This document shows positions 272 to 6,692 of a stretch of 6,692 nt of DNA, in pieces. Below the pieces are notes generated by a model. The model was given only the letters and a program-made list of their open reading frames with translations, did no database searches and was not told the origin of the DNA. Made by a program: the position numbers and the translations under genes. How positions within the stretch are numbered: the stretch's first letter is position 1; each line of letters begins with the position of its first letter. This DNA comes from a virus (taxonomy: Duplodnaviria > Heunggongvirae > Uroviricota > Caudoviricetes), in IMG/VR virus record IMGVR_UViG_3300001493_000033, one strand, 5' to 3'.

Positions 272-2605
272 TCAGGCTGTCGCAGGGTCGTCACATTTTG
301 GCAGCCAGTCGCCGTAGCTTTCCTCTTTCAGCGTCAGGTTGGTCTGTATCCCCTGTTTGGTATGGCGCTTCTCGTAATTCAGTCCGTATTCCTTCAGCAT
401 CACCGGCAGCCCCAGCCCGAACATTTTCAGACTGAGTACATTCCGGTAGCCGTTTGCCTCCATGTAGGCCAGATAGGCGTGATAGAGGTATTTACAGTAA
501 TTACGCGGGATGATACTGGCGTTCCCCATATACATGCCGCTGGTCTGCGGCAGGGTTTCCAGATAGCCGATAAAATCAAACGTCGGGTCGGCATCCCGTT
601 TGATGTTCAGTGCCTCGTCTGAGTTCTGCTGGGACTGAAGCAGTGACCGGGCGAGCATCGGGTCGCTGAATTTCTGCATCAGGTGACGCACGATGACCGC
701 CAGCTCGCGGGTGATTTTGTCCTTAAGCTGCGGGTCGCGCTCCTGCGGGGCTATCTGTTCCGGGAAGTGAATAATCACCCGCCGGCGTGACACGCCGCCG
801 CTGCGGTCGGTGAAGCGCATCGGGTTATTGTTCACGGCCAGAATNACCGCCGGNATATGCGTGGAGTACGCATCCCGGTATTTCGGGTCCACGGACACCG
901 CATCGCCGCCGGTGATGGCCTTGAGTCCGGCACCGTCGCCGCTCCATTTTTCCTGNTCCGGCAGGCGTATCAGTGAGAAGCCAGTTAACGCGGCACGTTC
1001 ACGCGGGGATTCCAGCGTCTCNATGGTGGCCGACGTGGCGTTATCCTCNCCNGCCAGCAGGGTGGCTATTTCGGCCATGATACTTTTGCCGCTGCCGCCG
1101 GGACCGGTCACCTCCAGAAAGAGCTGCCAGTCGTAGCGGTTTGCCAGCACCATAAACAGTGCNGCCAGAATCACGTCGCGTTTTTCCGCACGNCCACCGG
1201 CGGCACGGTCAAGCCAGCGCCAGAACGCGGGNGCGTGGGTTTCCAGCGTTTCACCNTCCACCGGCGGGGTGAAATCCACATCGCACAGGGTGCGCATCCA
1301 GTGTGACGGACTGTGCGGGTGGAACGTGCCGTTCTGCGTGTCGAGCACGCCGTTACGAAAGCCAATCAGGCGGCGGGAGGGGGCTTCCTGCTGCGGAATA
1401 ATCAGCTTCAGGGTGTCCACCACGGAGGCCACCTTCCCGGAGGAGAACGGCGCGCGCAGACGCTGAAACAGCCCGGCCACATCCCGGGCAAAGTCCTGTG
1501 GTGGCAGCACCTTCCAGACACCATTTTCATAACGGGACAGAAGCTGGCCGTTGGCATCAACCGCGAGCGCCTCGCCGTAATGCTCATAGATACGCATGGC
1601 CTTTTCGCTGGTACTCATGGCGGAAAACTCCGCTTCGCTCATGGTGTCGAACGGGCTTTCAGCCGGTGGCCGGATGGCATCGTAAATGGCCTTACGGGNG
1701 GCCTCCCCGCCGTACTGCGTGAAGGCATCATTCCAGTCACCGAAGACCGGCGGCAGGGCAACAACGCCCTCACACGCATCTGCGGCTGCGGCGGCTTTTT
1801 TCTGGCCGTCACCGCTGAGGTCACGGTCTGCGGCAAGGACAATCTGACAGGCCGGATGCTTCTGCCGGGCAAGGCTGGCCAGAGAAAGGAGGTTCACGGA
1901 AGAAAGCGCCACCATCACCGTTTCACCGGTCAGGTGATGTACGGTAAGTGCGGTCGCGTATCCCTCCGCTATCCACAGACGTTTTCCGGCCTGATTCTGT
2001 CCTTCAAGGNTGTGACAGGTGCCCCTGACCTGNCCGCCTTTCAGGGTGCGCTTACGGCCGTCAGCACTGATTAACTGAAGGTTAACCAGTTCGCCGCTGT
2101 CGTCATACAGTGGCACCACAAGGTCACCGGCGCGCCAGCTCACGCCACCGGCTCTGTGTGTGCCGGTCAGCATCCGGCATTCCCGGCCGGGAAAGCCCTT
2201 GCGGGTCAGGTAGGCGTTACCGGTTCCGGGACGGGTTTTCGCCATCAGGGTTTGTGCCAGTGCGGCGGCGTTCTTCCGGGCAGCGTCTGTTTCAGCACCG
2301 GCGGCNGCCGTCACTGCCGGGTCAGCCGGGGGCAGGCTGCCGGTCACGGCAGCCACCTTTGNGGCCGCGTCGGACGGGGAAACACCAAACACCTTTTCAA
2401 CCAGTTTCAGGCCGTCACCGGCACCACACTGATTGCAGTACCAGGTGCCGCGCCCCTCCCTGTCATCAAAACGGAANCGGTCACTCCCGCCACAGACCGG
2501 ACAGGGCTGATGACGGTTNTTCAGCACCTGAATCCCCAGCGCCGGGAGAATACGCGGCCAGTGGCCGAGCGCATGGCTGACGGTGGCGGTTACGTTNATT
2601 TTCAT
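272..2605 (-). CDS. alpha: P4 alpha-like multifunctional replication protein (zinc-binding primase N-terminus, TOPRIM, SF3/D5-type helicase), 777 aa
   Basis: N-terminal zinc motif CPVCGG...CNQCG; TOPRIM-like LWIAEGYATA...AADRDLSGDG; Walker A GPGGSGKS; RBS AAGGAG 9 nt before ATG at 2605-2603. Several X residues come from ambiguous bases but the frame stays open. Confidence 0.9.
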   Translation of the reverse strand: MKXNVTATVSHALGHWPRILPALGIQVLXNRHQPCPVCGGSDXFRFDDREGRGTWYCNQCGAGDGLKLVEKVFGVSPSDAAXKVAAVTGSLPPADPAVTXAAGAETDAARKNAAALAQTLMAKTRPGTGNAYLTRKGFPGRECRMLTGTHRAGGVSWRAGDLVVPLYDDSGELVNLQLISADGRKRTLKGXQVRGTCHXLEGQNQAGKRLWIAEGYATALTVHHLTGETVMVALSSVNLLSLASLARQKHPACQIVLAADRDLSGDGQKKAAAAADACEGVVALPPVFGDWNDAFTQYGGEAXRKAIYDAIRPPAESPFDTMSEAEFSAMSTSEKAMRIYEHYGEALAVDANGQLLSRYENGVWKVLPPQDFARDVAGLFQRLRAPFSSGKVASVVDTLKLIIPQQEAPSRRLIGFRNGVLDTQNGTFHPHSPSHWMRTLCDVDFTPPVXGETLETHXPAFWRWLDRAAGXRAEKRDVILXALFMVLANRYDWQLFLEVTGPGGSGKSIMAEIATLLXXEDNATSATXETLESPRERAALTGFSLIRLPXQEKWSGDGAGLKAITGGDAVSVDPKYRDAYSTHXPAXILAVNNNPMRFTDRSGGVSRRRVIIHFPEQIAPQERDPQLKDKITRELAVIVRHLMQKFSDPMLARSLLQSQQNSDEALNIKRDADPTFDFIGYLETLPQTSGMYMGNASIIPRNYCKYLYHAYLAYMEANGYRNVLSLKMFGLGLPVMLKEYGLNYEKRHTKQGIQTNLTLKEESYGDWLPKCDDPATA

Positions 2606-2619
2606 GGTGTTGTTCTCCT

Positions 2620-2940
2620 TCAGTGCAGTACCGGCGCTTTTATGTGACGGGCACAGAGTTCATCCNTCACAACCAGCCCGAGAAAGGACAGCGACGGCGC
2701 GGCCTTCAGGGGGCCGGATTCCATTAAATCTTCCAGCAGGGCACAGGCTATCTGACGCCCTTTTTCCTCACCGTGCTGGCGCAGATAAAAGCCTTCCAGC
2801 TCAGCGGCGATGGCCGCCTCCAGTGACTCAAGGGTGAGATGCGGGTAGCGGTGCTGACGTTCGCACACGGTCAGCCAGGCACAGGCGACAGCGCGACGGT
2901 AAAGGGCAGCGCGTAAGACGGGCGGTAAGGGTGTTTTCAT
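2620..2940 (-). CDS. Hypothetical protein, 106 aa, immediately upstream of and coupled to alpha
   Basis: ORF with RBS GGGAGG upstream of ATG at 2940; its TGA stop (2622-2620) overlaps the alpha RBS. No domain recognised by eye. Confidence 0.7.
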
Positions 2941-3075: not shown

Positions 3076-3704
3076 TTACAGATAATTGCGGTAACTGTTA
3101 TCCGGGGTGGTTTCCGGGTCAGGCTCCGTGCGGGGAATTTCCCGCCATTCCCGCGCTACCGGTGCTGCCCGGCTGACCGGAACAGGGTCCTGCGGGTAAA
3201 TATCCAGATATTTCTCCCGCCATTTCTGTAATTCCGGGTCTCCGGCCATTTCTTTCAGTACCGCATGCCGGTTTACGGAGCTGCGTTTAAACAGGTCAGG
3301 ACGGTCACAGGTAAATTCCCGCAGAAAACGCCCCAGCGGGATGTCTGTGGTGCGCCCGTCGGCGAGGATACGCACAAGGATACTGAATTTACGGCGGTAC
3401 GGATTCCAGACAATGTCCGGGCAGCGGTACGGCATTTCCCANNNNNNNNNNGGCTGCGTTTAAACAGGTCAGGGCGGTCACAGGTAAATTCCCGCAGAAA
3501 ACGCCCCAGCGGGATGTCTGTGGTGCGCCCGTCAGCGAGGATACGCACAAGGATACTGAATTTACGGCGGTACGGATTCCAGACAATGTCCGGGCAGCGG
3601 TACGGCATTTCCCACGGAATACCGTCTTCCAGAATGCCGACCACGGCCACATCGGGAAAACCGGCAGAACGGTAAATCTCACCGGGCTGGGGAAAATCAA
3701 ACAT
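3076..3704 (-). CDS. Hypothetical protein, P4 orf151-like; 151 aa once the gap-flanking duplication is collapsed
   Basis: The 143-aa and 119-aa ORF fragments overlap through a 162-bp duplicated segment either side of the N run; merging at MPYRCPDIVW gives 32 + 119 = 151 aa. RBS GGGAG 9 nt before ATG (3704-3702), which overlaps the upstream gene stop (ATGTTTGA). Confidence 0.65.
3280..3614. repeat. Duplicated 162-bp segment on both sides of a 10-N scaffold gap (3280-3441 and 3453-3614); probable assembly artifact
   Basis: Near-identical sequence (2 mismatches) directly flanking nnnnnnnnnn at 3442-3451; collapsing it restores a single in-frame 151-aa ORF. Confidence 0.6.
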
Positions 3705-3984
3705 GCGTCCTGTCTCCCCGGTCTTTCTGCTGGGCGAGAAAATCGCGGCACAGGCCTTTGGCTTTCAGCTCATTCAGCACAAAATCAATATCTTCATTCA
3801 GGTAACTGAAAATATGCGGAATGTAGAGCTGATGCAGGCCGGAGAGTTCACGGTGAATCAAATCACCCCCAACAAACTGGGATACGGCGCTGGCGCGGTT
3901 GAGCTTATGGTAAGCCTCAATGCTGAGGTGTTCACGGGCGTCATGACGTGCTGAGACGGTCTGAGGGGCTTTTTTATTACGCAC
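3697..3984 (-). CDS. Epsilon-position protein, 95 aa, GTG start
   Basis: Open frame ending in TGA at 3699-3697, overlapping the next start codon; in-frame GTG at 3984-3982 preceded by GGAGGU with 5-nt spacing; overlaps the stop of the upstream small ORF. Assignment is by position and size only. Confidence 0.5.
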
Positions 3985-4174
3985 GGGACACCTCCACCAC
4001 CGGCAGACGGGCAGCAAGGGAGAGCACATAGTCACGGACAAGGGAACGGCGGGCGCTGCGTTCATCACCGGCGACGGTGCGAAGCATGCAGATACGGGGA
4101 TGACGGTCTGCGCGACGGACAGCCGCAAACACAAAGACAAATTCAGGGTGTGAGGGGGTAAGGGTTGTAGCCAT
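3977..4174 (-). CDS. Small protein, 65 aa, Kil-position (possible host cell division inhibitor Icd/Kil-like)
   Basis: ATG at 4174-4172 with RBS GGAGG (4186-4182) 7 nt upstream; product [21 protein letters not shown]...; identical copy at 5969-6166. Function inferred from position in the P4 operon, not from sequence recognition. Confidence 0.55.
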
Positions 4175-4181
4175 GATGGCA

Positions 4182-4296
4182 GCCTCCTTGAAGTAACAGT
4201 TACAGCTACCACTGGAGTTCCTACGCTCATGGGTGGTAGCCCGGACGGGGGTAGGAATACCGGCCTTCAAGGAAACCGGCCAGCCCGAAGGCTGCC
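4182..4296 (-). ncRNA. P4-type immunity leader RNA region (CI-like): seqB-like element plus seqC-like target overlapping the Kil-like RBS
   Basis: Plus-strand cttcaagg (4265-4272) and gtaggaa (4251-4257) are complementary to ccttgaag/gttcctac at 4186-4226 and again at 4408-4433; local hairpin gctaccac/gtggtagc (4205-4212/4233-4240); CAGCC-UUCG-GGCUG tetraloop hairpin (4281-4294). RNA boundaries not determinable from sequence. Confidence 0.5.
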
Positions 4297-4377
4297 CCGC
4301 CCGGACCACCATTATCTGACAGAGGCTACGGTTTAAAAACCACAGCCAGAAAAACAGGTGTGCCGAAGCAACGACGT

Positions 4378-4399
4378 AAAAAAAGACGCATGGCGCGTC
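4378..4399 (-). terminator. Intrinsic terminator between the upstream seqA-like site and the seqB element
   Basis: Minus-strand GACGCGCCAUGCGUC (6-bp stem incl. one GU, 3-nt loop) followed by U7 (A-run 4378-4384 on plus); conserved in the second copy at 6406-6427. Confidence 0.55.
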
Positions 4400-4407
4400 A
4401 TATGTCG

Positions 4408-4433
4408 CCTTGAAGTAACTCGGGTTCCTACGC
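4408..4433 (-). promoter_or_regulatory. seqA-like upstream target site (direct repeat of the seqC-like site)
   Basis: ccttgaagtaac (4408-4419) and gttcctacgc (4424-4433) repeat the motifs at 4186-4197 and 4217-4226; both are complementary to the seqB element. Confidence 0.5.
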
Positions 4434-4462
4434 CCGGCTGCCGATTTTGCGGCAGCGGAGAA

Positions 4463-4492
4463 ACTATATCCGCAAATGCCGGAAAAAGGCAA
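4463..4492 (-). promoter_or_regulatory. Candidate sigma-70 promoter (PLE-like) reading toward the immunity region
   Basis: On the minus strand, -35 TTGCCT (4492-4487), 18-bp spacer, -10 TATAGT (4468-4463); conserved in copy 2 (-35 at 6515-6520, -10 at 6491-6496). Prediction by eye only. Confidence 0.35.
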
Positions 4493-4527
4493 GCCAGAAA
4501 AAGGGACTTTTTGCAGAGCGGGCATCA

Positions 4528-4794
4528 TCATGCGTCGTACCCCCGTTTGCGTCCGGCAATGCGCCCGGCCATCCATGCGGTGATTTCAGAGTGCAGCCAG
4601 GCCACATTTTTACCGCCAAGACTCACCTGCGGCGGAAATTCCCCCTTACGGATGAGTTCATAGATGGTCGAGCGTGACAGGCCGCACAGGTGCATCACTT
4701 CCGGCAGACGTAAAAAACGCTCCTGCGTGATGTCCGGCAGCGGCATCAGTGGCGTCACAGGGGCGGGAGACGGGGAAGAAAAAACAGCTTGCAT
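4528..4794 (-). CDS. alpA: AlpA/Vis-family phage transcriptional regulator (excision/integrase regulator), 88 aa
   Basis: Product contains the AlpA-type helix-turn-helix region [27 protein letters not shown]; RBS GAGGU 6 nt before ATG (4794-4792); same size as P4 orf88/Vis. Confidence 0.88.
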
Positions 4795-4896
4795 CGGGCT
4801 ACCTCGTTAATGTCCATACAGCACCGGATAAGTCCGTCCGGCTTCGGGTAGCGCTTTATTTTGTGAATATTTTTGGCAGACGCAACAGGGGGGATT

Positions 4897-4970: not shown

Positions 4971-5073
4971 AATTCGTAATTTTTATAGTGAAATACAAAT
5001 CGTTTCTTCTTATTCATTCACAGCGAATTAATAAAAACAAACAGTAGTAAACAGCACAAAAAGTCCATGAGCG

Positions 5074-5178
5074 GGTGAACAGTGGTGAACAGACGGTGAA
5101 CAGTCATTACTGCGATTGTTCACCCNTTAACTTACTGTATTACTTATCTTTTTTCTTATGGTGAACAGAGGTGAACAG
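5074..5178. repeat. Iteron cluster, ori-like
   Basis: GGTGAACAG at 5074-5082, 5084-5092, 5095-5103 (about 10.5-bp phasing), 5160-5168, 5170-5178, and inverted TGTTCACC at 5117-5124; flanked by AT-rich sequence (4970-5070, 5180-5200). Confidence 0.6.
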
Positions 5179-5256
5179 TAAAATATAAAAAAACAAACAG
5201 TAAGCCGGTTTTTCCTGCGACCTTTTCCTGGCTTGCCGGTCTGAGGATGAGTCTCC

Positions 5257-5931: not shown

Positions 5932-5968
5932 NNNNNNNNNNGCTGAGACGGTCTGAGGGGCTTTTTTA

Positions 5969-6166
5969 TTACGCACGGGACACCTCCACCACCGGCAGAC
6001 GGGCAGCAAGGGAGAGCACATAGTCTCGGACAAGGGAACGGCGGGCGCTGCGTTCATCACCGGCGACGGTGCGAAGCATGCAGATACGGGGATGACGGTC
6101 TGCGCGACGGACAGCCGCAAACACAAAGACAAATTCAGGGTGTGAGGGGGTAAGGGTTGTAGCCAT
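5969..6166 (-). CDS. Second copy of the Kil-position small protein (65 aa)
   Basis: Same ATG and RBS context as 3977-4174; the coding region lies entirely within the near-identical duplicated segment. Confidence 0.5.
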
Positions 6167-6173
6167 GATGGCA

Positions 6174-6461
6174 GCCTCCGTTAGATAGCAGGTTACGCTA
6201 TCGCCGGAGTTCTCACGCTCGATGGCGATAGCCCAGACGGGGGTGAGAATACCGGCTCTAACGGATACCGGCCAGCCCGGAGGCTGCCCCGCCTGAGCTA
6301 CCATTGACTCAGTGGCATAACATGCGATTGCAAACAGGATCATACCTGCACGGCAAACCACACGCCACACCATAATCTGGCGCTCTGTGGCGTTGATTGC
6401 GACACAAAAAAAGACGCATGGCGCGTCATATGTCGCCGTTAGATTGCTCGGGTTCTCACGC
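6174..6461 (-). ncRNA. Variant P4-type immunity region (seqA-, seqB-, seqC-like sites with altered but mutually complementary sequences)
   Basis: seqC-like ccgttagatagc (6178-6189) and gttctcacgc (6209-6218); seqB-like gtgagaa (6243-6249) and tctaacgg (6257-6264); seqA-like 6436-6461; hairpin gctatcgcc/ggcgatagc (6197-6205/6224-6232); UCCG-loop hairpin 6273-6286; terminator 6406-6427. Confidence 0.5.
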
Positions 6462-6555
6462 CCGGCTGCCGATTTTGCGGCAGCGGAAAAACTATATCCG
6501 CAAATGCCGGAAAAAGGCAAGCCAGAAAAAGGGAGTTTTTGCAGAACAGGCATCA

Positions 6556-6692
6556 TCATGCGTCGTACCCCCGTTTGCGTCCGGCGATGCGCCCGGCCAT
6601 CCATGCAGTGACTTCAGAGTGCAGCCAGGCCACATTTTTACCGCCAAGACTCACCTGCGGCGGAAATTCCCCCTTACGGATGAGTTCATAGA
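6556..6692 (-). CDS. alpA: AlpA/Vis-family regulator, second copy, C-terminal part only (5-prime end beyond window)
   Basis: Near-identical to 4528-4664; stop codon at 6558-6556. Confidence 0.75.

Follow-up and report, generated by a model that had tools for sequence, protein, structure and literature searches.

A P4-type promoter, seqA leader and intrinsic terminator between vis and the CI RNA gene of a satellite prophage

Organization of the left-operon region

The window, by which we mean the whole stretch of 6,692 nucleotides that was analysed, covers the left-operon region of a P4-type satellite prophage, whose genes are all encoded on the minus strand; the start of sid is found on the plus strand, beyond vis. 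Read along the minus strand, vis (4794..4528) is followed by the leader discussed here, the CI RNA gene (4316..4229), kil, the gene of the epsilon “derepression” protein (3984..3697), orf151, the gene of a DUF5375 protein (2940..2620), and the gene of the alpha primase-helicase (2605..272). The vis gene is of the AlpA family (Pfam Phage_AlpA, E = 4e-21) and corresponds to ORF88 of P4, and its stop codon is located 36 nt upstream of the −35 box of the promoter described below. The leader is therefore situated between vis/alpA and the CI RNA gene, which is the gene order of a P4-type immunity leader. Positions 4100-4800 share 93% identity with phage P4, many E. coli chromosomes are 98% identical to the window over nearly its full length, and window-related sequence is present in 1929 of 5426 complete genomes.

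The window is an assembly scaffold of three pieces, which are joined by runs of ten N (3442-3452 and 5932-5941). The flanks of the first run repeat one another over 162 nt with 99% identity (3280-3441 and 3453-3614), as overlapping contig ends, and this repeat at the junction breaks orf151 artificially. The last 750 bases (5942-6692) constitute a second copy of 3950-4664 that is 93-94% identical to the first. This second copy, termed copy 2 hereafter, most likely derives from the corresponding region of a different P4-type element in the sample, rather than from a tandem duplication. Single N are scattered throughout the window. We also note, at 1-240 and 5060-5190, GGTGAACA(G)-type repeats that are clustered on both strands. 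They resemble the features labelled “ori type 1 repeat” in the P4 record, and the cluster at 5060-5190, flanked by vis and sid, has the same placement as the P4 ori. The cluster past the end of the alpha gene would presumably correspond to crr.

The RNA region is also spanned by the eta reading frame (3977..4576, minus strand), which encodes 199 amino acids and contains the nested kil gene (ATG at 4174, 65 amino acids). The frame starts 49 nt inside vis and crosses the promoter, the leader, the terminator, the CI RNA and seqC before it enters kil. This amounts to dense dual coding, in which a single frame lies over a promoter, two regulatory RNAs and a terminator. The frame of copy 2 (5969-6604, minus strand) has 211 codons; copy 2 has 36 nt more between the terminator and the CI RNA than copy 1, a difference that stays in frame. 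Among 80 scorable related loci, the eta frame is open for ~370-480 nt upstream of kil in 78, and the length variants are all multiples of 3. In E. coli NZ_CP066836.1 (locus L202), the stretch 1455-1832, which corresponds to window positions ~4576..4199, carries in RefSeq an “ash family protein” pseudogene that extends over PLE, the leader, t1 and CI, and the number of RNA features listed there is zero. The product name that RefSeq gives for kil is “host cell division inhibitor Icd-like protein”. Since the annotation overlays the RNA switch with a pseudogene and no RNA, readers of raw sequence will keep rediscovering the switch.

Promoter, leader RNA and terminator

A candidate sigma-70 promoter is present on the minus strand at 4492..4463, with the −35 hexamer TTGCCT (4492..4487), an 18-nt spacer and the −10 hexamer TATAGT (4468..4463), as the original prediction had described. 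Phage P4 (X51522) possesses identical hexamers with identical spacing at the homologous place, the computed positions being 8728-8723 for the −35 box and 8704-8699 for the −10 box. At the sequence level, the predicted promoter therefore coincides with P4 PLE. The position of the early promoter had been regarded as unresolved in the original prediction; the answer is provided by the hexamers of P4 and by the isrK model of Rfam, which begins exactly 7 nt after the −10 hexamer, the expected place for a sigma-70 start. We infer that transcription starts at G4456, 7 nt past the −10 box, in which case the leader RNA would comprise 79 nt (4456..4378, minus strand), from this G to the end of a run of seven U.

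The predicted leader begins with a 7-bp stem-loop, GCUGCCG-CAAAAU-CGGCAGC (4456..4437), the inverted repeat noticed earlier, which is followed by hairpin 2 (4436..4421), a CGGG/CCCG stem whose 8-nt loop displays the first module of seqA. The RNA ends in an intrinsic terminator (4399..4378, minus strand) composed of the hairpin GACGCG-CCA-UGCGUC (4399..4385) and U7 (4384..4378), found exactly where it had been proposed. P4 has the same two 5′ hairpins, with the first base of stem 1 at computed position 8692 and the terminator hairpin and T-run at 8635-8614, and its terminator differs by one loop base. For seqA of P4 the computed position is ~8667-8644, and the predicted start of transcription falls at ~8692. 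A 6-bp G+C-rich hairpin followed by T7 is the anatomy of a Rho-independent terminator. A bidirectional terminator was also considered and rejected, as a T-run sought on the plus strand after the hairpin was not found. All of these parts recur in copy 2, where Rfam isrK and the alignment to copy 1 place the promoter at 6520..6491 and the leader with its terminator at 6484..6406 (minus strand).

The isrK family of Rfam (RF01394) recognizes the leader of both copies above the gathering score of 50 and over the full model, with 73.4 bits in copy 1 (4456..4379, E = 9e-15, model 1-77 of 77) and 72.0 bits in copy 2 (6484..6407, E = 2e-14). The c4-a1b1 model (RF03163) also matches, at 4469..4417, with 50.1 bits against a gathering score of 46.7. 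The promoter, the 5′ stem-loop, seqA and the terminator belong together, as had been suspected, in one unit of isrK architecture, from which a sense RNA of ~79 nt that carries the target sequence of seqC is predicted.

Consensus scans of the window do not single out this unit. One promoter-like site was observed against 0.6 expected from shuffled sequences, one terminator-like site against 1.4 expected, and single-sequence folding of the 79-nt RNA gave z = −1.3 relative to shuffles. As the scans and the folding are close to shuffled sequence, it is only the comparative data that set the unit apart. For the comparison, 80 viral-contig loci were gathered by way of their Kil protein, so that the leader sequence played no part in the selection; 77 of them carry the leader. 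Genome contigs were scanned with a pattern of 15 specified bases, for which ~100 of 120 loci were chance matches in unrelated bacteria; ~18 loci were scanned with Rfam, and 12 terminator-bearing leaders from other genera were analysed. The pattern fixes GCAAAATC and GCCGGG, and the invariance of these two in the genome-contig set, which is by construction, was not counted. An isrK-type leader with a terminator, followed by C4, is present in 10 of the 18 loci from other genera according to Rfam, which corresponds to 10 of the 12 that bear a terminator.

Across 79 E. coli-type copies, the leader varies only in the loop of hairpin 2 and in the 8-nt single-stranded block with the few bases preceding it; this block, which is module 2 of seqA, is the most variable segment of the leader. 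At a minor allele frequency of at least 5%, the promoter and the stems of hairpin 2 have no variable positions, and stem 1 and the terminator have one each, whereas the 40 nt past the T-run are variable throughout. Comparison of 20 distinct leaders from several genera reveals that 91% of the cells of the three helices are paired, versus 35-39% when the partners are slid, and that seven pairs change on both sides; the covariation score was reached by none of 500 shuffles. Of the 7 bp of stem 1, three change on both sides, with 97% of the cells paired, and compensatory changes are observed in the terminator stem in distant relatives. The arrangement TTGnnn-17/18-TAnnnT precedes stem 1 in nine of the 12 distant loci, at a distance of 6 nt in eight and 7 nt in one, and the promoter sequences of these loci are otherwise unrelated. 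The predicted composite of promoter, leader and terminator is far beyond chance.

The terminator is not common to all relatives. In six C4-associated relatives with both 5′ hairpins, a T-run was sought and not recognised; relatives of this kind are the genome-contig loci L026, L055, L076, L079 and L112, which have a1b1-like 5′ hairpins with no T-run terminator before C4. Such terminator-less relatives indicate that the intrinsic terminator marks the isrK/P4 branch, not the whole C4 system. We also note that a record titled Chryseobacterium sp. 18061 (locus L080) contains an enterobacterial-type isrK of 78 bits and a C4 of 85 bits; the presence of these RNAs in a Bacteroidota-labelled contig possibly reflects contamination or mislabelling.

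The seqA modules, the CI RNA and related immunity systems

The seqA element of the leader is made of two modules on the minus strand. Module 1, GUAGGAA (4431..4425), is located in the loop of hairpin 2 and is the exact complement of UUCCUAC in the CI RNA of the same copy. Module 2, CUUCAAGG (4415..4408), is single-stranded in the predicted fold and is the exact complement of CCUUGAAG in a loop of the CI RNA; the complement of module 1 is located in an unpaired stretch. The CI RNA itself (seqB; 4316..4229, minus strand), the antisense immunity factor, matches the Rfam C4 model (RF01695) over its full length with 86.1 bits (gathering 45), and the match starts 62 nt past the isrK unit in copy 1 and 98 nt past it in copy 2. 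Both modules recur downstream in seqC (4224..4186, minus strand), as GUAGGAA at 4224..4218 and CUUCAAGG at 4193..4186, the latter overlapping the Shine-Dalgarno sequence of kil. A target that precedes its antisense RNA on one and the same strand is the arrangement of the c4-a1b1/C4 clan (CL00128). The seqA modules of copy 2, GUGAGAA and UCUAACGG, have their complements in the CI RNA of that copy (6308..6221, Rfam C4), and in both copies the complementarity of seqA to seqB is exact over 7 nt and 8 nt and the modules are repeated in seqC.

This relation extends well beyond the window. In 76 of 83 related loci, both seqA modules are complementary to the CI RNA of the same locus and are repeated in seqC, and 14 combinations are represented, with three alleles of module 1 (GUGAGAA, GUAGGAA and GUGGAAA) and at least six of module 2. 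Each combination is consistent at three places, seqA, CI and seqC, all of which must change together. Duplexes of leader and CI RNA calculated for copy 1, copy 2 and P4 have ~ −34 kcal/mol when cognate, versus −18 to −27 kcal/mol when non-cognate. Copies 1 and 2 differ in both modules and should for this reason be heteroimmune, so that the window would hold parts of two heteroimmune P4-type elements. Both copies should also be heteroimmune to P4, which carries GUGAGAA and UUCACAGG, at least at module 2.

A few loci depart from this rule. Block 2 of seqA mismatches the CI RNA of its own locus in L176, and neither block matches in L190, while seqC fits the CI RNA in both, which suggests that seqA-CI pairing is dispensable in some loci. 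L176 and L190 appear to be natural hybrids, in which CI-stimulated termination at t1 should be absent, and such mismatches fit the reported dispensability of t1 for lysogeny. In L135 and L180, block 2 of seqA is not an exact complement of CI, and an exact block-2 match between seqC and CI was looked for in these two loci and not found; these loci seem to be degenerate elements and not simple hybrids.

Among the closest known systems is phage P4, studied in the Deho, Ghisotti and Briani laboratories between 1992 and 2000, in which the leader occupies the same place between vis (ORF88) and cI, and in which the same CI RNA, seqC and kil/eta lie downstream; the cI region was once annotated as “cI gene product”. 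The difference lies in specificity, the module pair of P4 being that given above and copies 1 and 2 having their own.

The immI system of P1 and P7 has a c4 antisense RNA with the targets a1/b1 and a2/b2, for which both Rfam models (RF01695 and RF03163) match here. As in the window, the antisense RNA derives from a transcript that carries both target sets, one upstream and one downstream, of which the latter coincides in part with the ribosome-binding site of an icd-like gene. Unlike the leader described here, several a1b1-type relatives have no intrinsic terminator between the upstream targets and c4. C4 of P1 mainly blocks the translation of icd, and termination follows as a consequence.

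IsrK of the Salmonella Gifsy-1 prophage belongs to the same covariance model (RF01394) at full length and is a structural homologue of the P4 seqA RNA (PMC4825925, PMC3632133, PMC10111431). Like the unit described here, it is preceded by a promoter of its own, begins with two 5′ hairpins and ends at a Rho-independent terminator with partial read-through, and it is followed by a C4-like RNA, in this case STnc1160, and a small ORF (PMC4825925). In contrast to the satellite in the window, the host of IsrK is a lambdoid prophage, in which orf45-anrP (antirepressor) is found downstream instead of kil/eta-epsilon-alpha. Trans-activation of translation that leads to AntQ expression has been demonstrated for IsrK (PMC4825925) and would be a hypothetical function in P4-type elements.

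Probable attenuation at t1 and competing readings

We take the hairpin at 4399..4378 to be the P4 terminator t1. Briani, Ghisotti and Deho reportedly located t1 in 2000 “between the PLE promoter and the cI gene” and described it as a terminator of the typical Rho-independent kind, the efficiency of which is said to depend on the CI RNA and seqA. In the same work, CI is said to stimulate t1 in vitro without other factors, and deletion of t1 reportedly gave more CI expression with lysogeny retained. A terminator between seqA and seqB, which had come as a surprise in the original prediction, is thus reportedly the t1 of P4. In the comparison with the mapped P4 positions that had been suggested, the promoter has the hexamers of PLE at the same place, and the terminator and timm are different sites. 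In P4, timm is a Rho-dependent terminator that extends from the kil ATG (X51522 8365-8209; PMC3177188). This interval maps to ~4174..4018 of the window, inside kil and ~210 nt downstream of the hairpin, and the identification of the hairpin with timm was rejected on account of the coordinates (PMC3177188) and of its intrinsic-terminator anatomy.

The region is very probably the PLE-seqA-t1 leader at the head of the left (early) operon in a P4-type satellite, acting as a CI-dependent attenuator that limits read-through from PLE. The analysis itself supplies the anatomy and the homology and shows that seqA, CI and seqC covary, whereas the dependence on CI and the protection by eta come from published work. 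CI acts via pairing with seqA and seqC (PMC4825925, PMC3632133, PMC10111431). In the proposed mechanism, the constitutive sigma-70 promoter PLE would initiate at ~4456, and the 79-nt RNA would fold into the 5′ stem-loop, a hairpin that shows module 1, a single-stranded module 2 and a modest terminator t1. The CI RNA, which is cut from those transcripts of the operon that read through, would pair with both seqA modules and make t1 efficient, so that most PLE transcripts would end as an RNA of ~79 nt before cI, kil and the replication genes. Attenuation at t1 would thereby provide negative feedback on CI synthesis and a first layer of immunity, the second being the pairing of CI with seqC further downstream; in the literature, the lytic genes are blocked by this pairing in combination with timm and t4. 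Late transcripts, which start at a promoter upstream of vis, would escape, as ribosomes that translate eta cross the leader and the terminator.

A possible anti-terminator is located at 4409..4392 (minus strand), where GGCG (4409..4406) can pair with CGCC (4395..4392). As long as the 3′ arm of the terminator has yet to be transcribed, this helix gives the nascent RNA its minimum-energy fold (−5.7 kcal/mol). The first two G of GGCG are the last two bases of module 2, and CGCC lies in the 5′ arm and the loop of the terminator. We infer that pairing with CI would cover this GG and set free the 5′ arm of the terminator, and removal of the helix in this way would explain a stimulation that is independent of other factors. 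The helix recurs in P4-type and several distant leaders and is ambiguous by eye in five distant ones; it is a weak element, and this step is tentative. The anti-terminator may already be present in the primary P4 papers.

Two other accounts of the same features fare poorly against attenuation. That promoter-like and terminator-like strings came together by chance and lack a function would agree with the scans, in which each consensus match alone is no commoner than in shuffles, and with the folding z of −1.3, but it is refuted by the comparative data and has next to no probability: Rfam E-values are ~1e-14 in both copies, the promoter, the stems and the terminator are invariant against a variable background, and both the stems and the three partners seqA, CI and seqC covary. 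It is also very improbable that the hairpin and U7 form the ordinary 3′ terminator of the vis/AlpA transcript from the late promoter, a possibility that the original prediction had raised. The vis stop codon does precede the hairpin by 129 nt, and both are on one strand; a full promoter and a structured leader, however, intervene, and the same terminator follows isrK-type leaders in other genera, in flanks unrelated to those of this window. Moreover, in ~78 of 80 scorable loci no stop codon interrupts the eta frame between its beginning within vis and the hairpin, the length variants being in frame, and PMC10111431, which cites Forti 1999, states that translation of Eta from the late promoter prevents termination and that late transcripts reach the replication genes. 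With eta open and translated, the hairpin is better understood as a conditional terminator for untranslated PLE transcripts than as the end of the vis message.

A trans role of the terminated RNA of ~79 nt would supplement attenuation, not replace it. The RNA could serve as a decoy for the CI RNA, as the original prediction had suggested in terms of competition, or as an IsrK-like opener of the read-through mRNA for kil/eta translation; we consider such a role unlikely, with points on either side. The modules of the leader are the same as those of seqC, and the leader shares with many stable Hfq-bound sRNAs a hairpin at the 5′ end, a stretch rich in A and U that precedes the terminator, and a tail of U, here U7. 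Against a trans role, P4 deleted for t1 reportedly lysogenises and only over-produces CI, which attenuation alone would explain. The full-length membership in the family of IsrK favours it: the short IsrK of Salmonella has been detected experimentally, ends at the Rho-independent terminator, is a stable Hfq-binding RNA, and has a trans effect on the mRNA that results from its own read-through (PMC4825925). In the S. Typhi transposon libraries of Barquist et al., IsrK-like sequences of P4-like prophages were scored as required, and the authors did not commit themselves to a mechanism (PMC3632133). The decoy idea was raised earlier for IsrK and STnc1160 by Hershko-Shalev et al.; joint over-expression of IsrK and the C4-like STnc1160 in Salmonella, however, did not fit a simple decoy model (PMC4825925). 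A narrower version is a little more doubtful still, namely that the t1-terminated leader of 79 nt is a stable, possibly Hfq-bound sRNA whose action, either titration of the CI RNA or opening of the read-through mRNA, is specific to the immunity type. If this were true, the ratio of short leader to CI, not CI alone, would set the threshold of derepression, and P4-type satellites that reside in one host and have some of their modules in common could cross-talk via the leader. The question touched here is that of a possible trans function of the short leader in P4-type satellites, in the manner of IsrK in Salmonella.

The feature is already known, as PLE/seqA/t1 of P4 and as the IsrK/seqA family of Rfam, and is real but ordinary. 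The two puzzles of the original prediction, the terminator and the early promoter, are both answered in the P4 and IsrK literature. The annotation of the window is settled accordingly, with the early promoter at 4492..4463 and with the hairpin very probably as the CI-dependent attenuator t1 and not as timm or the end of an alpA transcript.

A minor observation concerns the P4 sequence itself. At ~8694-8691 of X51522 (L001 943-946), the 1990 record has TTTTTCGCCTGCCG, where all other relatives have TTTTTCCGCTGCCG. The latter is also present in eight viral-contig loci with the seqA allele pair of P4, five of which carry the matching P4-type CI RNA. In P4, TTTTTCGCCTGCCG breaks the first pair of stem 1, and it may be a GC/CG transposition error of the old P4 sequence.
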